A DNA stretch of 64,000 bases from an uncultured Candidatus Actinomarina sp. (GTDB taxonomy: Bacteria > Actinomycetota > Acidimicrobiia > Actinomarinales > Actinomarinaceae): the NCBI GenBank assembly GCA_902510055.1, contig CABWZY010000003.1, positions 15,067-79,066 of the forward strand, in the 5' to 3' direction. The notes beneath the pieces were generated by a model. The model was not told the DNA's origin. It did not search any database and saw only the letters and a program-made list of their open reading frames with translations. Both the position numbers and the translations under genes were made by a program. Position 1 is the first letter of the stretch. Every line of letters begins with the position of its first letter. Positions 8,667 through 63,278 of this stretch are shown here, piece by piece.

Positions 8667-9059
8667 TCAAGCAAATAATAAATTTATAGCTTTAGCTGCT
8701 TCAGAACCTTTGTTCTTATTGTCATCAGCACGTTTTTTTGCTTGTTCTATGTTATGTACATTTAGCACACAGTTTGCAATATAAACAGACTTACTAATTG
8801 ATAAATTAATAAGACCATTAGCTACTGCATTAGAGATATATTCATAATGATCTGTTTCGCCTTTGCATATAACACCAACAGCAATAAAGATCTTATAATC
8901 TTTTGATAAAGTATTAATTTTATATACTATATCCCAACTTCCAGGCACCTTAAAAGTAGAAAGTTCAAAAGAATTATCTATAACTTTATTTATACCATTT
9001 AAGAGATTTTCATTTATCTCTGGATAATATCCGGTATGTACAATAGCTACCTTATTCAT
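8667..9059 (-). CDS. ribH: 6,7-dimethyl-8-ribityllumazine synthase
   Basis: 130 aa. Similar to RibH (VAIV..G, FEYV/HYEYIS core). N-terminus is short. Confidence 0.85.
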   Translation of the reverse strand: MNKVAIVHTGYYPEINENLLNGINKVIDNSFELSTFKVPGSWDIVYKINTLSKDYKIFIAVGVICKGETDHYEYISNAVANGLINLSISKSVYIANCVLNVHNIEQAKKRADDNKNKGSEAAKAINLLFA

Positions 9060-32275: not shown

Positions 32276-32629
32276 TTATTTATTTAAAAGTTTAATAAAT
32301 AGTTCGTAAGACATAGAAATAACTTCTGGCATTCCGTCGTTTGTTCTTCTTTTGTTATCGCCTTTTCTTTTTAATTTTTTCCAAAATAAAACAGTGTTGA
32401 TATTACCAGATTTTTCGATTGCTTTATCTAAAGATTGATGAAGGTTTAAATTTTGTCTTGATTTAGCTTCTATAAAATACTCTTCATCTTTTGCAAATAA
32501 TTGTATATCACCTAAATCGTTCGAACCACCCTCAGCAAATCTTTGAGATCGTAAATTTACATTTTCATTTAAACGATTTACTATATTCGTTTCGTAATTT
32601 GTACCTTGTTTTTTTGCTTTGTTAACCAT
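32276..32629 (-). CDS. Hjc-like PD-(D/E)xK nuclease (putative archaeal-type Holliday junction resolvase) sitting where ruvC normally lies
   Basis: 117 aa. K7xG..E13...RS28..GGS36..D41-x12-E54-A-K56 lines up with Pyrococcus Hjc E9/D33/E46/K48, including the GSxxxD and IExK blocks. Lies immediately downstream of yebC. Confidence 0.6.
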   Translation of the reverse strand: MVNKAKKQGTNYETNIVNRLNENVNLRSQRFAEGGSNDLGDIQLFAKDEEYFIEAKSRQNLNLHQSLDKAIEKSGNINTVLFWKKLKRKGDNKRRTNDGMPEVISMSYELFIKLLNK

Positions 32630-32648
32630 TTTATAATTTTAACAATTT

Positions 32649-33392
32649 TTAAATTGTTAATGCAGTATCTAAAAGTTTATCGTCAATATCGAAATTTGAA
32701 TATACATTTTGTACATCGTCTAGTTCTTCTAAAGCCTCAATAAGCTTGCTAACATCTTTGAACATCTTTATGTCCAACATAACCGAACTATCAGGAATAT
32801 AAGCTACTTCAGAATTTGTAGAAATAAATTTATTTGTTTTAAATAATTCATCTATTTTTTTAAAATCGTTTGGTTCAAATTCTAAATTTAATGAATCATT
32901 TACTTCATTAATATCTAAACAGTTATTTTCTATTGCTAAATTTATCAAGTTATCATTAACTTCTTCAAATTGAAAAATAGCTTTACGGTTAAAGAGGTAA
33001 TTTACACTACCAGGGGTTCCTGTGCTTCCATTGTTTCTATTAAAAGCAGCTTTAACATCTGATGAAGTACGGTTTTTATTATCTGTTAAACATTCAACTA
33101 GTATGGCAACACCATGAGGTCCATATCCTTCATAGTGTACTTCTTGAAATTCTATTCCGTCACTATCACCGCTTAGTCTTTTTAATGCTCTTTCAATATT
33201 TTCATTAGGTACTGAATTTGATTTTGCTTTTGAAATTGCTTGATATAAAGAAGCATTATTAACAGGATCAGCCCCACCATTTCGCGCCGCTACCTCTATT
33301 CCTCTTATTAATTTTGCAAATAATTTACCTCTTTTGACATCATTGGCACCTTTTTTTCTTTTTATAGTTGACCATTTAGAGTGACCCGACAT
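32649..33392 (-). CDS. yebC: YebC/PmpR family transcriptional regulator
   Basis: 247 aa. MSGHSKW N-terminus typical of the family. Confidence 0.9.
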   Translation of the reverse strand: MSGHSKWSTIKRKKGANDVKRGKLFAKLIRGIEVAARNGGADPVNNASLYQAISKAKSNSVPNENIERALKRLSGDSDGIEFQEVHYEGYGPHGVAILVECLTDNKNRTSSDVKAAFNRNNGSTGTPGSVNYLFNRKAIFQFEEVNDNLINLAIENNCLDINEVNDSLNLEFEPNDFKKIDELFKTNKFISTNSEVAYIPDSSVMLDIKMFKDVSKLIEALEELDDVQNVYSNFDIDDKLLDTALTI

Positions 33393-43476: not shown

Positions 43477-45426
43477 TTAGCCAAAAGAAGGATTTTTTGT
43501 ATTTGGAACAAGGGAAATCCACACTTTTCCTTTTGGTACATACAATATATTGTCATTATTATCTACTATGTGGAATGGATCAAGATTTGAACCTCTTTTC
43601 CACTTTGCGTCAAGTAACTTACCTTTATGTAAAATAATTGCTCTACCTTCACCAACTGTTTTAACTGAAGGAAGCTGAAGGGGGTGGATATAAGGTTCAC
43701 AAAATAATGCAATAACAGTTGTTGCTGTAATTTGGCCTTGAGTTCCATTTTGGTTTATCCAATAGTGGATATTATTATCAGATGAATTTTTATATGCATC
43801 ATAATAGGTTCTAACATATGATGATCCATTCCAAGACCATGTTGTTGATGTATATGTTGAAAATGTTAATTTAAGAAAGGAATTGTAAGACCAACTATCT
43901 AAAGATGGATCACCCCATGGAAATAAAGGTTGTGGATTATTATATTTTTTATAACCTTTATTGATTGCAAGCTGTTTTAATTTCGATGTATCTGCATATA
44001 AATTATGTGGTGCATTTCTTGATGATATGCGAAAGTACTCTGGTCGTCTATCTGTTATTACTGGAACACCCATATCAATAATCTCAGGTATTAATCCTCC
44101 TGTAGCTCCGCTTGCAATTAATACTCCACCAACAGGTCTTAAAACAGTTGGATCTGTTGGCCTAGCTGATCTAATTGGTCCGTGATAACTTGTATCACTT
44201 TGGTAAAATATATTTATAAATCTAGTCATTCCTCCTTCAACCAAAACTTCAAAAACTGCATCTGCAGCTTGAGGTCCAGATTGAGGCCTGGCTCTAACAT
44301 TATTATCATTTTTAATGCCTATTACAATAGAGTTATTTGATCCAATTGGCATTGGAAGTCCGTTGACAGGTGAGTTATAACCCTCTGTATAATTTTGTGT
44401 AGGAACTGCGCCTAAGGAAGTATAAGTTTTTTCTTTTGTTAACGTCCAATTTTGATTCAAATATGCATCTAACTCTGCTTGTGAGTTTACTTGAGCAACA
44501 TTTCCATATCTATAAACGAATACAGGATAAAAACATGGATCAGGTACCCAGACATCATCATCGTTAACATACCCAACTAAACAGTCTAAATTAGGATTGT
44601 AGTTTATTAAATCAACAGTCAAACTTACATTTAAATTTACTGTTTCTTCTATATTTGTAACTTCTTCTGTAATAATATTTTCTTCATTAACTTCTACTGA
44701 TATAAAAGATTCTTTACCTTTATCTAAAGCTTGCTTTGTTTTAGGACCAAATATTCCATCAACCTCTAATCCTGCTTTTCTTTGAAATTCTTTAAGTGAA
44801 ACTTTTGTTTGGAATCCAAATACACCATCAATATCTCCTGTATATATTTCTAAATCTTTTAATTTTTTTTGTATATATTTTGCTTCATCAGAAATTTCAT
44901 AAAGATTTATATCTACAGTTTGTTGTCCTCCTATGTTTATATATGAACTTTCACCTTTCTTTAAAGCTTCTTTTGTCATAGGTCCTAATATTCCATCTTC
45001 AACTAACCCACTTCTTTTTTGAAATTCTTTAATCGCTAACTTTGTATATGTACCAATTACACCATCAATGTCACCTTGATAAATGAACAATTTTTTCAAT
45101 TCTCTCTGTGCATCTTCTATATTATTTACTACAACTGTTGGGATAGTTGTAGTGATTGTTGATTCTGTTGGGATAGTTGTAGTGATTGTTGATTCTGTTG
45201 GGATAGTTGTAGTGATTGTTGATTCTCTTGGGATAGTTGTAGTGATTGTTGATTCTGTTGGGATAGTTGTAGTGATTGTTGATTCTGTTGGGATAGTTGT
45301 AGTAGCTATATTTTGGCTACTTTCTATTGTGTTATTTCTGTTATTAAGGAATAAAATTAATGAAATCAAAACTAAAAAAATCAAAAAAGGGTTATTATTT
45401 TTGATTTTGTTTAAATATTTAAACAT
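43477..45426 (-). CDS. secreted/anchored protein: N-terminal TM, Thr-rich tandem-repeat linker, two peptidoglycan-binding (PG_binding_1-like) repeats, C-terminal DUF3048 (YerB-like) domain
   Basis: 649 aa. TTTIPTESTI repeated six times. GDIDGV.G..T...I..FQ PG-binding motifs. ARPQSG...VEGGMTRF...GPIRSARPTDP block shared with the neighbouring paralog. Confidence 0.75.
   Translation of the reverse strand: MFKYLNKIKNNNPFLIFLVLISLILFLNNRNNTIESSQNIATTTIPTESTITTTIPTESTITTTIPRESTITTTIPTESTITTTIPTESTITTTIPTVVVNNIEDAQRELKKLFIYQGDIDGVIGTYTKLAIKEFQKRSGLVEDGILGPMTKEALKKGESSYINIGGQQTVDINLYEISDEAKYIQKKLKDLEIYTGDIDGVFGFQTKVSLKEFQRKAGLEVDGIFGPKTKQALDKGKESFISVEVNEENIITEEVTNIEETVNLNVSLTVDLINYNPNLDCLVGYVNDDDVWVPDPCFYPVFVYRYGNVAQVNSQAELDAYLNQNWTLTKEKTYTSLGAVPTQNYTEGYNSPVNGLPMPIGSNNSIVIGIKNDNNVRARPQSGPQAADAVFEVLVEGGMTRFINIFYQSDTSYHGPIRSARPTDPTVLRPVGGVLIASGATGGLIPEIIDMGVPVITDRRPEYFRISSRNAPHNLYADTSKLKQLAINKGYKKYNNPQPLFPWGDPSLDSWSYNSFLKLTFSTYTSTTWSWNGSSYVRTYYDAYKNSSDNNIHYWINQNGTQGQITATTVIALFCEPYIHPLQLPSVKTVGEGRAIILHKGKLLDAKWKRGSNLDPFHIVDNNDNILYVPKGKVWISLVPNTKNPSFG
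45135..45307. repeat. about 5.8 perfect copies of a 30-bp tandem repeat (ctgttgggatagttgtagtgattgttgatt; one copy has a G>C change)
   Basis: Direct head-to-tail repeats inside the CDS, encoding (ESTITTTIPT)n on the minus strand. Confidence 0.95.
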
Positions 45427-45471
45427 TATCTAATAAATATAGGTGATTTTAATATTATTGTTTTAAATTAT

Positions 45472-46584
45472 TTAACTACTTGACCAATCTATTTTACCAT
45501 TATCTAAAGGTAATATATGTAACCACTGTTTACTTGGAGGTACATAAATAGCATTCTGCTCTTCATCGTAAAATTCAAATGGTTCACTTATATCATTTCG
45601 TCTCCAAGTTCCTTCAATATAATTACCATTGTTAAATATATACACAGGACCAACACCAACAGTTAAAACACTAGGTAAGGTTGTTGCTTCATCTATATAA
45701 ATTGGACCTTGGATAACAACAATTGTTTCTGTTTGTAAAATTTGAGTAGTTTCATCTCTGGTTATTATATTGTGAGCAACTGCTTCTTTTGAAGACGTAT
45801 ATCCGTCAATAATAAATCTTGAATACTTTGTACCATCTAATTTCCATATTATTGTTGTAAAATCACTATATTCAATTGTTACTCTGTTAGAACCTGAATT
45901 CCAGTTATTTTGATTTTTACCAAAACTATAAAGTGGTCCAGGTGGTGGATTGAAAGGAAATCCTTTCTCATCAACTAATTCTCTGATTAATTCTGTATCG
46001 CCATATAAATTATGTGGAGCACTTCTAGAAGTTATTCTAAACATAGCTGGAGCAGGTTGTTCTTCTAAAACAGCAACTCCTAATTCTCTTATTTGAGGTA
46101 CTAATCCTGGTGTTGCTCCAGACACTACTAAGATTCCACCGTATGGCCTTACTAAAGTTGGATCTGTTGGTCTTGCTGATCTAATTGGTCCAAGGTAATC
46201 ACTTGTTTTATCATAGAAAAAAGCTAAAAATCTTGTCATTCCACCTTCTACTAATATTTCATGTACTGAATCAGCATCTTCTAAACCTGACTGAGGTCTA
46301 GCGTTTAGATTGTTATCTATTTTGAAAGCTAATATTCTTCTTGGTCTTTTTAACCATAATTCAGGAGGAAGTTCTAACCCTGTAAAGGGAGACATCTTTT
46401 CTTCATCAAATACATATAATTCCGCAATTGAGGTAGTAGTAGTATCACTTACTTCTTTTTCTATAGTTGTAACCGTAGTTGTTACTTTATCTGTTATATC
46501 AGAATTTTGGGATTCATCATTATTATCTGCTGATGAACAAGATAGAATAATAAAAGCAAGTAAAAGAACTTTTAAATTTTTCAT
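45472..46584 (-). CDS. DUF3048 (YerB-like) lipoprotein, paralog of the upstream gene
   Basis: 370 aa. Lipobox ILSC. Thr-rich linker. The same ARPQSG/VEGGMTRF/GPIRSARPTDP/SRSAPHNLY blocks. Confidence 0.75.
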   Translation of the reverse strand: MKNLKVLLLAFIILSCSSADNNDESQNSDITDKVTTTVTTIEKEVSDTTTTSIAELYVFDEEKMSPFTGLELPPELWLKRPRRILAFKIDNNLNARPQSGLEDADSVHEILVEGGMTRFLAFFYDKTSDYLGPIRSARPTDPTLVRPYGGILVVSGATPGLVPQIRELGVAVLEEQPAPAMFRITSRSAPHNLYGDTELIRELVDEKGFPFNPPPGPLYSFGKNQNNWNSGSNRVTIEYSDFTTIIWKLDGTKYSRFIIDGYTSSKEAVAHNIITRDETTQILQTETIVVIQGPIYIDEATTLPSVLTVGVGPVYIFNNGNYIEGTWRRNDISEPFEFYDEEQNAIYVPPSKQWLHILPLDNGKIDWSSS

Positions 46585-59423: not shown

Positions 59424-59627
59424 TTATCTTTCAACAGTATTTATAGATTTATTAAATCTATTTAGTATTCTTTCACAAATTTCAATAACTAAATTTAAAA
59501 TCCATAACCCTATATACATCGCTATAAATAAATTTAATAACTTAAGAAGTAAATAAACTATACCTAAATAGATAAATATCCATGTAATTGTAAATTTAAA
59601 AGAATAAATTGGAGATTGTTTATTCAA
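59424..59627 (-). CDS. small membrane protein (67 aa, 2 TM), start overlaps the SRAP stop
   Basis: 4-nt overlap with the upstream SRAP gene. Hydrophobic helices. Confidence 0.35.
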   Translation of the reverse strand: MNKQSPIYSFKFTITWIFIYLGIVYLLLKLLNLFIAMYIGLWILNLVIEICERILNRFNKSINTVER

Positions 59628-60268
59628 AATGGTAACTCTGAATATTCTTTATATAAATTTTCATTATTATTCTTTGGATTATTAACAGCAACATCTACTC
59701 TATGGTAGTTAATATTGTTTATTTCTAAATTTAGTTGCTCTTGTAGATATTTAATATCAGTGTCAAAATTATTCCAATAACTAAGTAATTCTTCATTTAA
59801 TACAACTGGCATTCTTTCATGTATATTTTTTAATTCAGATATAGAATTTTTTGTCAAAATGCATGTTTCTATAGATTCATCACTTCTTTTGTTATAAATG
59901 CCAGCAACTTTTATTACTTTATTATTTTCTTTAAAAAAAGCATACGGTATTTTTGATTCACCTTCTTTTTTCCATTCATACCAACCAGACATTAATATTA
60001 TGCATCTTCTTTTTTCAAATGGAGTTTTAAAGGTCTTTTTCTCTAAAACAGTTTCCAATCTTGCATTAATTAAAGGTTTAGAGTCCTTCATTTCTTTTAA
60101 CCAAGTAGGATAAAAACCCCACTTTGCATTAACTATTTGATTGTCTATTACAATAGCAACTTGAGACGAAGGGACAATATTATAATTTTTAAATTCATTA
60201 ATAATTTCATTGTTAGTTAAATATGATAATTCCTCATCTGAAATAAAATTGTAATATCGTCCACACAT
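59624..60268 (-). CDS. SOS response-associated peptidase (SRAP/YedK family, abasic-site processing protein)
   Basis: True start is at MCGRY (catalytic Cys2). The upstream in-frame extension in the ORF track overlaps the tRNA genes and is spurious. About 214 aa. Confidence 0.8.
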   Translation of the reverse strand: MCGRYYNFISDEELSYLTNNEIINEFKNYNIVPSSQVAIVIDNQIVNAKWGFYPTWLKEMKDSKPLINARLETVLEKKTFKTPFEKRRCIILMSGWYEWKKEGESKIPYAFFKENNKVIKVAGIYNKRSDESIETCILTKNSISELKNIHERMPVVLNEELLSYWNNFDTDIKYLQEQLNLEINNINYHRVDVAVNNPKNNNENLYKEYSELPF

Positions 60269-60282
60269 AATTATAAGCCTTG

Positions 60283-60353
60283 AGGCGACGACGAGAATCG
60301 AACTCGTGTAAACGGTTTTGCAGACCGCTGCGTAGCCACTCCGCCACGTCGCC
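60283..60353 (-). tRNA. tRNA-Cys (GCA)
   Basis: Hand fold: acceptor GGCGACG/CGUCGCC, anticodon stem GCGGU/ACCGU with loop CUGCAAA, T arm ACGAG/CUCGU with UUCGAUU, discriminator U73 and G13:A22 as in tRNA-Cys. Confidence 0.85.
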
Positions 60354-60357
60354 AATG

Positions 60358-60430
60358 AGCGGAAGACGGGATTCGAACCCGCGGCCTCAACCTTGGCAAG
60401 GTTGCGCTCTACCAGCTGAGCTACTTCCGC
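60358..60430 (-). tRNA. tRNA-Gly (GCC)
   Basis: Hand fold: acceptor GCGGAAG/CUUCCGC, D arm GCUC/GAGC, anticodon stem CAACC/GGUUG with loop UUGCCAA, T loop UUCGAAU, discriminator U. Confidence 0.85.
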
Positions 60431-60476: not shown

Positions 60477-60914
60477 TTATCCTGTTGATCCGAATCCTTT
60501 ATCTGATCTATCAGTATTTTTTAATTTTTTTACTAAATTAAAAGACACGTTTTCTACATTAATAATTACTAACTGTGCGAATCTTTCTCCCTTTTCTAAG
60601 GTATATTCTTTATTTGAGTGATTGATTAACGGAATTATTAACTCTCCTGTATATCCTGGATCAACTAATCCAGGTGAATTTATTGAAGTAATACTATGTT
60701 TAGAAGCTAAACCTGATCTAGGTAATATAAACCCTCCCATATTAGGAGGAAGTTCAATTTTTACACCTGTATGTATTCGTGTAATTTTTTTTGTTGAAAG
60801 TGTATATTCCTGTATCGAAAATATATCGTAGCCTATATCTAATTCGTGTTGTTTTTCTGGTATTTTTGCATTTTTATTAAGGAGTACAATATTTATGTTA
60901 ATATTTTTATTCAA
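60477..60914 (-). CDS. dut: dUTP diphosphatase
   Basis: 145 aa. dUTPase motifs (PRSGLASK, GLVDPGYTGE). Confidence 0.85.
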   Translation of the reverse strand: MNKNININIVLLNKNAKIPEKQHELDIGYDIFSIQEYTLSTKKITRIHTGVKIELPPNMGGFILPRSGLASKHSITSINSPGLVDPGYTGELIIPLINHSNKEYTLEKGERFAQLVIINVENVSFNLVKKLKNTDRSDKGFGSTG

Positions 60915-61983
60915 TGCTACCCTTTCAATGATGAATATTAGAGATTATATTTTTATAAATAAAGCTAAAAATCTAAATAAGATAAGAATTTTAGAAATAT
61001 TAGGTTTTGAATCTAATACTTTTATTAGTCAATCCCCTGAAAATATTAAGCATATTGCTAAAACTATAAATGAAGAAGAAGAATTTGACTTAGAATTTGA
61101 CAATAAAGAACCTTTCAATTCTGAACACTCTTTAATTGATAATATCGATGATAAAACAAAAATAATTGATAATGCTCTAACTGAAACATTCGAACCTATT
61201 AATGTTACTTCAAAAATAAAAAAAATCTGGACTGATATTGAAAGAAGAAGGCAATGGGTAGTACCAGCAGTTTTATTTGTTTCAACATTAATTTTGATAA
61301 CTACTGCATCTTCAGTATTTCTTAATAATAGAAATGCAACAAAAGAAATCGATATATTGTATGAGTCACTTACTTTAGAATCAAATAAACTAATAAATGA
61401 GTTGCCGGAAATAATTTCTATCTCTACAGATATTTTTTACTCTAAATATGATGTCTCAAACGCAAGTGCTAGTTTACAGATTATTGAATCTACTGTTATG
61501 GAATATGGTAGGAACTTAAATAACAGAGAAGGTTTTTCTAACAATTCTGAATTAACCGAAAATTTATCAAATATTTTTCTTTTGATAGATGATTTAGATG
61601 ATTTAATAAGTTACCGAATATTAAGATCTGAAATTTTAATTTATAACGATTTATTAGTTATAAATGATAATTTAGATATTGATCAATTATCCAATCAGTT
61701 ATCAGAGATTTCGGCTAAAAGTAACAGAAATTATGATATTTTGCCGATGATTAATGAATTTAATAATCATTATTTATTATTAGAAGAAACATTAAAGTCT
61801 GCTGAAGATTTGCATGGGAGATTAATTGCCGCATTAAGAAATAACGAATTTGAATTAGGGAAATCATTAATACTGGCTATTAAAATGAATAAGGATATTG
61901 AAACTACTAATTTTGAAAAATCTTTAATTAAATTTAAAGATAATAAAACTAACTTATACAACAATATATATATATTGCCTTAA
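60895..61983 (+). CDS. hypothetical single-pass membrane protein (start likely at the downstream MMNIRD)
   Basis: 362 aa. Central TM (VVPAVLFVSTLILITTASSVFL). Helical extracytoplasmic C-terminal half. Divergent from dut. Confidence 0.4.
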   Translation: MLIFLFNATLSMMNIRDYIFINKAKNLNKIRILEILGFESNTFISQSPENIKHIAKTINEEEEFDLEFDNKEPFNSEHSLIDNIDDKTKIIDNALTETFEPINVTSKIKKIWTDIERRRQWVVPAVLFVSTLILITTASSVFLNNRNATKEIDILYESLTLESNKLINELPEIISISTDIFYSKYDVSNASASLQIIESTVMEYGRNLNNREGFSNNSELTENLSNIFLLIDDLDDLISYRILRSEILIYNDLLVINDNLDIDQLSNQLSEISAKSNRNYDILPMINEFNNHYLLLEETLKSAEDLHGRLIAALRNNEFELGKSLILAIKMNKDIETTNFEKSLIKFKDNKTNLYNNIYILP

Positions 61984-62420
61984 TTAAATTCTGCTACTTC
62001 TTTCTCGAAGTCAGAAGCATCTGAAAATTCTTTATATACGGATGCATACCTTAAATATGCAACTTCATTAAATTCTTTTAAATGTGCTAATACTTTTTCC
62101 CCTATGAAACTACTTTTTACTTTTTTTCCCTCATCTTTAATCTCACTATATATATTGTCAACTAAGGATTTAAGTTGCTTTTCTGTAATATCTTGACCAC
62201 CAAAGGCACTATCTATACCTTTTTGAAGTTTTTCAATTTGAAATTCCTCTAGTTGACCGCTTCTTTTTTCAACAATTAATTCAATTTCAGTTTTCTCATA
62301 AGTCGTGAATCGTGAACTGCATTTAGGACATTTTCTTCTTCTTCTTACTGAAGAACCTTCACTGTTTCTTCTTGAATCTATTACTGCTGTATCATCTGCA
62401 TTACAGAATGGACATACCAT
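61980..62420 (-). CDS. nrdR: transcriptional repressor NrdR
   Basis: 146 aa. Zinc ribbon CPFC...CPKC plus an ATP-cone. Confidence 0.9.
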   Translation of the reverse strand: MVCPFCNADDTAVIDSRRNSEGSSVRRRRKCPKCSSRFTTYEKTEIELIVEKRSGQLEEFQIEKLQKGIDSAFGGQDITEKQLKSLVDNIYSEIKDEGKKVKSSFIGEKVLAHLKEFNEVAYLRYASVYKEFSDASDFEKEVAEFN

Positions 62421-62466
62421 ATATAGTGTATTATAGTTTTTAAGAAAAGTTGATTCAAATAGTTCT

Positions 62467-62658
62467 TTAGTTATTTATTGAAAACCTTGAGAGATAATCC
62501 CAAATATCTTCTGCAACTACTATTTCTACCCTATTTCCTATTGAATTTAAGCTAAAATTTTTAATAATAGGGGTAGATATTGAGGTATAAATCATTATTA
62601 ATATTGCGATTATTATCTTATCTTGCATAATTTTCATAATAATTATTAGGTATGACAC
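62467..62658 (-). CDS. small membrane protein divergent from lexA (candidate SOS-regulated protein)
   Basis: 63 aa. N-terminal TM. Start codon is 7 nt from the SOS-box-like operator. Sits in the position of Mtb chiZ (Rv2719c) between lexA and nrdR. Confidence 0.4.
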   Translation of the reverse strand: MSYLIIIMKIMQDKIIIAILIMIYTSISTPIIKNFSLNSIGNRVEIVVAEDIWDYLSRFSINN

Positions 62659-62664
62659 TTTTTA

Positions 62665-62680
62665 TCGAACATTTGTACTA
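62665..62680. promoter_or_regulatory. LexA operator-like site TCGAAC-ATTT-GTACTA (Cheo-box-like GAAC-N4-GTAC)
   Basis: Lies 11 nt upstream of the lexA ATG. Matches the actinobacterial and Gram-positive SOS box consensus TCGAAC-N4-GTTCGA at 10 of 12 positions. Confidence 0.4.
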
Positions 62681-62690
62681 TAATTAACAT

Positions 62691-63278
62691 ATGGTTAGTA
62701 AGAAACAGCAAGAAATTTTAAATTTCATTAATAAAAATATTGAAATAAAAGGATATTCACCCACAGTGAGGGAAATTTGTAAAGAAGTTAATTTAAAATC
62801 TACAAGTACTGTTCAATATCATTTAAACAAACTTATAAATTTAGGTTTTTTACAAAAAAGTAACAATATCTCTAGATCTATTCAAAGTTTAAACATGAAA
62901 AGTAAGTACAGTATTCCAATTCTAGGTGAAATTTCTGCTGGCCAACCGTTGATAGCTGAAGAAAATTATATAGGGGAACTACCTTATTTCGGTAAAGAAA
63001 GGAATAATGAGTTAATAGCATTAAAAATAAATGGAGATTCTATGATAGAAGCTGGTTTATTTGATGATGACTTAGTAGTGATTGATAAATCTATTATGCC
63101 GACAGATGGTGATATAGGTGCTTTTTTAATTAACAACACTGAAGCTACAGTTAAATACATTGACACTATTGAAAAAAAGAAATATTTAATACCTGCAAAT
63201 AAAAATTATAACAATTTAATCGTTGATGAAAACATAAGTTCTATAGGAAAAGTTATATCCTTATTTAGAGATATGTAA
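62691..63278 (+). CDS. lexA: LexA repressor
   Basis: 195 aa. N-terminal winged HTH. C-terminal S24 peptidase (GDSM... and a downstream K). Confidence 0.9.
   Translation: MVSKKQQEILNFINKNIEIKGYSPTVREICKEVNLKSTSTVQYHLNKLINLGFLQKSNNISRSIQSLNMKSKYSIPILGEISAGQPLIAEENYIGELPYFGKERNNELIALKINGDSMIEAGLFDDDLVVIDKSIMPTDGDIGAFLINNTEATVKYIDTIEKKKYLIPANKNYNNLIVDENISSIGKVISLFRDM

Follow-up and report, generated by a model that had tools for sequence, protein, structure and literature searches.

Introduction

Small membrane proteins encoded beside lexA couple DNA damage to cell division in several bacteria. The described cases include YneA of Bacillus subtilis, SosA of Staphylococcus aureus, DivS of Corynebacterium glutamicum and ChiZ (Rv2719c) of Mycobacterium tuberculosis, and the genes yneA, sosA and divS are known to be LexA-controlled (PMC13396833, PMC3989709, PMC6851548). 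Here we describe a gene at the corresponding position in a stretch of 64,000 nucleotides (nt) from an uncultured Candidatus Actinomarina sp., called the window in the following. The small gene lies on the minus strand at 62467..62628 (53 codons plus stop), divergent from lexA and upstream of nrdR. A sequence-only reading of the region had proposed a small protein with a single membrane segment, SOS-induced across an operator next to lexA, as a possible minimal analogue of the above inhibitors.

Published reports conflict on whether such proteins need a LysM domain. YneA requires both its LysM domain and peptidoglycan binding, and its membrane helix alone localises to the divisome without inhibiting division; this helix targets FtsW, where it binds transmembrane helix 7, and ChiZ and SosA are predicted to act likewise (PMC13396833). 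For ChiZ, which interacts with FtsI and FtsQ, the LysM domain has been reported to be unnecessary for function (PMC3989709). DivS and SosA have no LysM domain and yet block division (PMC6851548). Both are small, damage-induced proteins with a single membrane helix, encoded beside lexA, and SosA relies on a conserved membrane-proximal extracellular segment (PMC6851548, PMC3989709). The order Actinomarinales amounts to a natural experiment on this question, as sister lineages carry either an 84-100 residue LysM form or a 53-57 residue half-LysM form at the same position and with the same promoter.

In our reading, to which we assign a probability of about 60%, the small gene is a genuine 53-residue Candidatus Actinomarina ortholog of the membrane-plus-LysM genes that are found divergent from lexA and upstream of nrdR, under the DNA damage control set out below. 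Its position, descent and promoter place the gene in this group (the ChiZ locus, the YneA architecture). Because its LysM domain is incomplete and direct similarity to ChiZ is lacking, we file it as a truncated variant and not as a standard member. The locus as a whole is a variant of a known system and no new kind of system.

A conserved gene with short and long forms

The gene order at the right end of the window (GC content about 28%) is nrdR (minus strand), small gene (minus), lexA (plus) and dapF (minus), and in relatives miaA, miaB and recA come next. This order, continued by miaA-miaB-recA, is the actinobacterial lexA neighbourhood. The M. tuberculosis locus, as retrieved, reads lexA (minus), chiZ (plus), nrdR (plus), which bears out the likeness in gene order that had been suggested earlier.

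Relatives were found with the LexA protein of the window, which led to 12 species-level genomes of Candidatus Actinomarina and other Actinomarinales (OCS155 marine Actinobacteria) with LexA proteins 58-93% identical. Comparisons of the locus itself are based on 20 Actinomarinales loci, namely the window and 19 others. A gene is present at the position of the small gene in 20/20 loci, which disposes of the concern that the open reading frame (ORF) might not be conserved; the assignment of the window gene draws on the ORF listing together with the same-position orthologs in the 19 other loci. The divergent position next to lexA is shared by the window, these 19 loci, high-GC relatives and M. tuberculosis.

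The gene occurs in two forms. The short form, of 53-57 amino acids, is found in the window and its five closest relatives (L001-L005, LexA at least 78% identical). Every more distant relative (L006-L012, L024-L033) has a long form of 84-100 amino acids, in which a single membrane helix is combined with a complete LysM domain. Long forms match the Pfam LysM family PF01476 with E-values from 1e-6 to 4e-10, and among NCBIfam models they match 'cell division suppressor protein YneA' best, along its entire length, with E-values from 3e-9 to 2e-10 and below the curated cut-off. In the high-GC relatives (Ilumatobacteraceae and others), a membrane-plus-LysM protein of 93-142 amino acids is encoded at the same position. 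When a long-form relative was compared with solved structures, only generic LysM domains came up.

Alignment of the short family with the long family by hhalign places the whole short protein onto residues 1-57 of the long one (97% probability, E-value 1.2e-10). The tail of the window protein then matches strand 1 and helix 1 of the LysM domain, and the protein stops at the equivalent of LysM residue ~20. A complete LysM domain (PF01476, strand-helix-helix-strand) is thus a feature of the long-form orthologs and is absent from the window protein. Because of the end-to-end alignment and the shared position, the short form is best described as an ortholog, truncated at the C-terminus, of the membrane-plus-LysM gene divergent from lexA. 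In the Candidatus Actinomarina clade, some 30 codons for the second half of the LysM domain have been lost. Compared with the long forms, the distance from the start of the small gene to the start of nrdR is ~90-100 nt shorter, and the spacer after the stop codon is of about equal length, which suggests a clean deletion in the ancestor shared by the short-form subclade. The earlier comparison with the ChiZ locus stands, with the correction that the small gene is a homolog of the lexA-divergent membrane-plus-LysM genes and not a mere analogue.

The short form is narrowly distributed. An exhaustive profile search of 1.84 billion representative proteins gave only 13 matches, nearly all of them members of the short family and one a long-form ortholog, which marks the short form as a narrow lineage-specific variant. 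A protein of the representative library, the repetitive 234-residue P0015, matched the tail motif three times (EDLWQYLAEF, E-value 2e-4); this match is probably due to chance or composition and unrelated to the small-gene family.

Start codon and product

The ORF listing contains a minus-strand frame at 62467..62658 that starts with GTG and encodes 63 amino acids. This was the ORF of the sequence-only reading, and it does exist, but neither its GTG start nor its length is conserved. The GTG falls within a conserved promoter element (GTGTCAT). In L002-L004 there is an in-frame stop just 5' of the conserved ATG, and in L001 the matching GTG is out of frame. Other gene callers place the start at an ATG at 62637, for a product of 56 amino acids. 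The N-terminus common to all homologs, MK(D/E)K, corresponds to the window ATG at 62628. As the GTG is unconserved and embedded in the promoter, and the MK(D/E)K start is conserved, the product has 53 amino acids (MQDKIIIAILIMIYTSISTPIIKNFSLNSIGNRVEIVVAEDIWDYLSRFSINN; gene at 62467..62628), its start being fixed by N-terminal conservation as well as by promoter spacing. Between this ATG and that of lexA, the divergent region measures 62 nt, and not 32 nt as given before.

In the product, a predicted membrane helix (residues 5-23) is joined to a conserved tail by a variable linker. The single membrane segment that had been proposed is confirmed as one strong hydrophobic stretch, with a mean Kyte-Doolittle value of 2.01 over the 19 residues from 5 to 23. 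Signal-peptide cleavage after a conserved SxIS/T-TP motif may be an alternative to membrane anchoring. The AlphaFold2 model has a helix at residues 2-25 and shows two helices and no LysM-like fold, with a low-confidence mean predicted local distance difference test (pLDDT) score of 65.6. A fold search with this model was dropped, the model being too uncertain.

Constraint on the short form

The frame is open in six species-level genomes, among which synonymous divergence is near saturation, and in several metagenome clusters, with length and stop position kept. In shuffled sequence of the same composition, only ~1% of 53-codon windows stay open. The ratio of nonsynonymous to synonymous differences (pN/pS) is 0.52 in the membrane helix, 1.07 in the linker and 0.41 in the tail. 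The 19-residue tail has acquired a conserved motif of its own, A(E/D)(N/D)xWDYx(S/T)RFxxNN. Residues W43, D44, Y45, R48, F49 and N52 are invariant in the short forms, and at these positions the tail departs from the LysM consensus. The ratios suggest that the linker evolves neutrally and that helix and tail are constrained, a pattern that, in a small sample, is more in keeping with a peptide of two modules than with a remnant in decay. The small gene is genuine and looks selected, judging from these substitution patterns, with a constraint weaker than that on its neighbours.

How much weaker is apparent from the ratio of nonsynonymous to synonymous substitution rates (dN/dS), which is 0.32-0.79 for the small gene and 0.06-0.23 for lexA and nrdR, so that the value for the small gene is several times higher. 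This difference, together with the neutral linker, would also be expected if the gene were a non-functional remnant of a LysM gene, encoding an inert peptide, where selection keeps only a damage-inducible promoter that drives nrdR by read-through. The window protein, which has no Pfam match, cannot form a complete LysM fold, and YneA without LysM is inactive. The nrdR gene (61980..62420, minus strand, 146 amino acids, Pfam Zn_ribbon_NrdR and ATP-cone) begins 46 nt downstream of the small gene. A scan of 61900-62800 found no terminator-like hairpin between the two genes, and the small-gene transcript may therefore read through into nrdR. A mere relic is nevertheless unlikely. Random frames close quickly, and yet frame, length and stop are kept here in six species-level genomes and several metagenome clusters in spite of near-saturated synonymous divergence. 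Of the three regions, the tail shows the lowest pN/pS, and some of its residues are invariant; a useless stretch of 160 bp would be expected to have been deleted from a streamlined 1-Mb genome. Moreover, nrdR has a good promoter of its own inside the 46-nt spacer, the sigma-70-like TTGAAT-17 nt-TATAAT at 62430..62458 (minus strand), identified in a consensus scan with 10/12 matches and as a consensus match only.

The LexA operator

The site TCGAACATTTGTAC, which the sequence-only reading had placed between lexA and the small ORF, is present at 62665-62678. It forms part of a strandless operator, TCGAACATTTGTACTA, at 62665..62680, the core of which (62667-62678) is GAAC-N4-GTAC, or GAAC-ATTT-GTAC in full. 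The palindromic core matches the actinobacterial and Gram-positive LexA operator (GAAC-N4-GTTC) with one mismatch; the recA operators of the same lineage match it perfectly, and the window core differs from the recA palindrome by one mismatch in the right half-site.

The 12-mer GAAC-N4-GTWC has 4 matches in the window versus 1.4 expected, and 11 of 100 shuffles reach the same number, so that it is insignificant alone in AT-rich DNA. Two other sites in the window, at 8704 and 20241, were rejected as LexA boxes, as they are within coding regions and fit the extended consensus poorly, and were treated as chance. The 16-mer consensus derived from the relatives, by comparison, occurs once in the window versus 0 expected. 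A LexA-type site is present upstream of lexA in 20/20 Actinomarinales loci. The recA promoters of Actinomarinales were reached by a MiaB-based metagenome scan (9 loci), and all 9 have the perfect palindrome T(C/A)GAACAWATGTTC(G/T)A between TTGnnT and TAAAAT. Taken together, the single 16-mer in the window, the conservation at lexA and the palindrome at recA argue that the operator is not due to chance, and by sequence the TCGAACATTTGTAC site is a LexA-type box. The comparison with recA boxes also removes the earlier worry that no matching consensus might turn up at other SOS genes.

The box abuts the lexA -10 hexamer TATAAT (62679..62684, plus strand), which is 6 nt upstream of the ATG of lexA (62691..63278, plus strand, 195 amino acids, Pfam LexA_DNA_bind and Peptidase_S24). 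The arrangement TAnnAT-5-7 nt-ATG is conserved upstream of lexA in relatives. Because of this proximity of box, hexamer and start codon, lexA looks leaderless and autoregulated by predicted LexA binding. Counted from a leaderless lexA, the box would be at about -13 to -26; counted from the small gene, it would be at about -37 to -50, outside the core promoter of that gene.

Two other promoter assignments were tried and rejected. ATGACA-18 nt-TACTAT does not qualify as a lexA promoter with ATGACA as the -35 element, since GACA keeps a fixed distance to the small-gene -10 hexamer but not to that of lexA (variation of 4 nt among relatives), and since only GACA is kept and not the TTG required in a -35 element. 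A sigma-70 promoter on the small-gene strand with the LexA box in its spacer was discarded because the would-be -10 hexamer is unconserved.

A promoter of the PafBC type

Mycobacterial genes that are induced by DNA damage independently of RecA have the promoter consensus tTGTCRgtg-8 nt-TAnnnT (PMC5656591). The motif is now read as the '-26 element' of PafBC, in promoters without a -35 element, with PafB contacting the GTC triplet at -23 to -28, and PafBC is present in almost every actinobacterial species (PMC8635444). In M. tuberculosis, LexA binds near Rv2719c (chiZ) and regulates it negatively, and the RecA-independent promoter (RecA_NDp) is nevertheless thought to give most of the chiZ induction, independently of RecA/LexA (PMC3381160).

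We aligned the 20 intergenic regions on the strand of the small gene. The order of elements is LexA box, an A-rich spacer of 7-11 nt, TGTC, exactly 12 nt, TAnnnT, 6-8 nt and ATG. TGTC and TAnnnT, always exactly 12 nt apart, recur unchanged in 20/20 loci, and the neighbouring bases vary. The distance from this motif to the LexA box ranges from 9 to 13 nt across loci, and in the window the box is 7 nt from the promoter element. Here the putative -10 hexamer TATTAT is at 62636..62641 (minus strand), 7 nt upstream of the ATG, and exactly 12 nt further upstream is the PafBC-type -26 element TGTCATAC (62650..62657, minus strand, with TGTC at 62654-62657). The arrangement at 62636-62657, TGTC-12 nt-TAnnnT without a -35 element, is shared with the PafBC (RecA-NDp) promoters of mycobacteria; a difference is that the 'gtg' after TGTCR is unconserved in Actinomarinales. 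With the A of the conserved ATG as the inferred transcription start, GTC would be at -27 to -25, within the range contacted by PafB. The short distance from the -10 hexamer to the ATG implies that the small-gene mRNA would be leaderless. Within 62626-62693, both start codons are preceded at 6-7 nt by -10-like hexamers, with no Shine-Dalgarno sequence, and the spacing is the same in all relatives. lexA and the small gene thus appear to be two divergent, leaderless genes sharing a 62-bp control region. The core promoter of the small gene is, by its sequence, of the PafBC/RecA-NDp type, and the gene looks DNA-damage-inducible.

Corresponding arrangements are found at other loci. Upstream of chiZ in M. 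tuberculosis, TGTCGGTG-8 nt-TACCGT follows downstream of the lexA SOS box. In the high-GC relatives, the canonical motif precedes recA in ~24/30 loci and the LysM gene in 8/16, always downstream of GAAC-N4-GTTC boxes. In Actinomarinales, recA has the LexA palindrome, then 8-9 nt, then TGTC(A/T)TA and a -10-like hexamer in 9/9 loci.

The recA control region of L024-L032, ~60-115 nt upstream of the gene (e.g., L025:4835-4900), reads TTGnnT-[perfect LexA palindrome]-TAAAAT, 8-9 nt, TGTC(A/T)TA-N9-TTTAAT, and these dual promoters are followed by a leader of ~50 nt with an AGGAG ribosome-binding site. The layout resembles that of mycobacterial recA, which has two promoters, one LexA-regulated and one PafBC-dependent. 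The mycobacterial combination of a LexA box and a PafBC-type -26 promoter can thus be recognised at recA as well as at the chiZ-like gene of extremely streamlined marine Acidimicrobiia of 28-33% GC, which likely extends the reach of the two-branch actinobacterial DNA damage response to abundant, UV-exposed ocean bacteria.

The sequence-only reading had the small gene SOS-induced across the operator. The LexA-type box is real and conserved, and the part that does not stand is its central role, as the small-gene core promoter is of the PafBC type and the box is at about -37 to -50. Given this position outside the core promoter and the mostly RecA-independent induction attributed to chiZ, operator-driven SOS induction is probably only a minor part of small-gene control. 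Expression controlled mainly by LexA at the TCGAACATTTGTAC operator, as in a classical SOS gene, would agree with the match of the conserved box to the recA operator, with its distance of only 7 nt from the small-gene promoter element, with the negative regulation of Rv2719c by a nearby-binding LexA in M. tuberculosis and with the LexA control of yneA, sosA and divS. We regard such a scheme as improbable, because the box abuts the -10 hexamer of lexA and not that of the small gene, because its distance to the small-gene promoter is variable where the distance from TGTC to the -10 hexamer is fixed, and because the small-gene strand has no conserved sigma-70-type promoter with the box in its spacer, unlike the TTGnnT-[box]-TAAAAT of recA. 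The induction of M. tuberculosis chiZ, thought to be mostly RecA-independent, speaks against it as well.

The lexA-chiZ intergenic region of M. tuberculosis (L103:2400-2500) contains three degenerate SOS-box-like sites downstream of TGTCGGTG-N8-TACCGT, in the chiZ leader. As the corresponding Actinomarinales region has no such downstream boxes and, by prediction, no leader, weaker or absent LexA repression of the small gene would be expected.

Together, these features suggest that the 62-bp intergenic region is a compact bidirectional control region for the DNA damage response. LexA bound to the box over the leaderless lexA core promoter would autoregulate lexA, and LexA cleavage would derepress it. 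On the other strand, by analogy with mycobacteria, a PafBC-like activator would switch on the -26/-10 hybrid promoter, which has no -35 element, after DNA damage. LexA at about -37 to -50 would repress the small gene at most partially, and its cleavage may relieve interference.

Possible function of the short form

Translation of the leaderless small-gene mRNA, with possible read-through into nrdR, would give a 53-residue bitopic peptide with the N-terminus inside and the C-terminus outside. Its membrane helix would dock on the septal peptidoglycan synthase (FtsW/FtsI) and delay division, probably like YneA, ChiZ and SosA; that a peptide of 53 residues inhibits division is thus argued from analogy. 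The conserved tail, and not peptidoglycan binding, would provide the effector or a turnover signal, and could serve as either, protease turnover being the precedent set by YneA and SosA.

With ChiZ, the window protein shares the locus (divergent from lexA, with nrdR next downstream), the promoter logic (SOS box on the lexA side, then TGTCR-N11-TAnnnT) and the predicted layout, in which one membrane helix precedes an extracytoplasmic C-terminal part. In contrast, ChiZ has 165 amino acids and a 64-residue Arg-rich cytoplasmic N-terminal region, where the window protein has 53 amino acids and an N-terminus of 4 residues and retains only the first ~20 LysM residues. Further differences from ChiZ are the absence of extra SOS boxes downstream, the predicted leaderless mRNA and the lack of direct sequence similarity. 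YneA is likewise a small bitopic protein encoded beside lexA, and the membrane helix is the expected divisome-targeting part. The window protein differs from it in lacking the second helix and second strand of LysM and in having no match to the YneA NCBIfam model, and yneA is purely LexA-controlled, versus the PafBC-type promoter of the window gene. SosA (77 amino acids) and DivS would be the closest functional precedent for a version without LysM; no sequence homology to either is expected, and the window protein clearly derives from a LysM protein, of which it keeps half the domain.

On this basis, we tentatively suggest that the 53-residue peptide is a naturally minimised, active inhibitor, with a helix and a 19-residue juxtamembrane tail (WDY..RF) that block FtsW/FtsI without peptidoglycan binding, a possibility that we think has less than an even chance. 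If true, one of the smallest free-living cells would have a YneA/ChiZ-type checkpoint protein pared down to its core, with a new effector motif. The conflicting reports on LysM would be settled, and a very small natural peptide targeting FtsW/FtsI would be at hand.

The peptide could also be functional without inhibiting division, either as a damage-induced membrane-active peptide of the TisB type or as a harmless modulator or decoy that binds the divisome but has lost the peptidoglycan-binding part. It is very short and hydrophobic and has a damage-type promoter, the low-confidence model with its two helices is not LysM-like, and the membrane helix of YneA alone localises to the divisome without inhibiting division. 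We consider such a role very unlikely, given the descent from bitopic LysM proteins and not from a toxin family, the polar and aromatic conserved tail (WDY..RF), which is more like a protein-contact motif than a pore former, and the fact that no antisense RNA or antitoxin-like feature was seen.

Apart from the high dN/dS, several results weigh against the reading of the small gene as a damage-controlled ortholog of the membrane-plus-LysM genes. With regard to descent, the window protein had no match in Pfam (E-value up to 1) or in NCBIfam. Comparisons with ChiZ were based throughout on the database protein P0117 (623 member sequences), found with an M. tuberculosis sequence that served as query only (99% identical), and on a cluster named 'cell wall hydrolase ChiZ'. 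Profile comparison of the window family with the ChiZ family gave no similarity, and the long forms matched ChiZ only in the generic LysM domain (82% probability). As direct similarity between window protein and ChiZ is lacking, the link between them runs via the long forms of Actinomarinales, gene order and promoter architecture. The low confidence of the AlphaFold2 model is a further point on this side. By the YneA model, moreover, a protein with half a LysM domain would be inactive.

With regard to the promoter, position five of the element, A or G in the mycobacterial consensus, can be A, G or T in Actinomarinales, some loci having T. Within the window there is no excess of TGTCR-N11-TAnnnT (5 matches versus 5.8 expected), and the case for a PafBC-type promoter therefore rests on conservation across loci and on position. 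A Pfam scan of a subset of the window ORFs, including those of 300-340 amino acids (the size of PafB and PafC, which are HTH-WYL-WCX proteins), found no WYL protein. There was no WYL protein either among the neighbours on the cinA side upstream of recA in L031, and the Actinomarinales genome paper with its supplements makes no mention of LexA, proteasome, PafB, WYL or LysM.

Other features of the window

A 16-bp near-palindrome (62414-62429, minus strand ACACTATATATGGTAT) overlaps the nrdR start codon and is conserved in close relatives, half of it being coding. It agrees at 14/16 positions with the NrdR-box consensus acaCwAtATaTwGtgt. The palindrome could reflect nrdR autoregulation or be a coincidence. 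On the plus strand, an ORF of 362 amino acids (60895-61983) without a Pfam family and with one internal hydrophobic segment converges on nrdR, the two stops overlapping by 4 nt.

A gene for an SOS-response-associated peptidase (SRAP, YedK-like) is found at 59624-60268 on the minus strand, 14 nt downstream of genes for tRNA-Cys (60282-60353) and tRNA-Gly (60357-60430). As the gene lacks both a LexA box and a TGTC motif of its own, it may be co-transcribed with the tRNAs. The longest SRAP ORF listed (243 amino acids, TTG start) crosses the tRNA-Cys gene and is an artefact.

The region 32276-33392 comprises a yebC-like gene (32649-33392), followed by an ORF of 117 amino acids without a Pfam match and then by queA and tgt. 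In many Actinobacteria, yebC is followed by ruvC-ruvA-ruvB; in this streamlined genome, ruvABC may be located elsewhere or be absent. Finally, 43477-46584 (minus strand) contains two adjacent DUF3048 paralogs, the larger of which (649 amino acids) has two PG_binding_1 domains, and both are probably cell-wall-associated.

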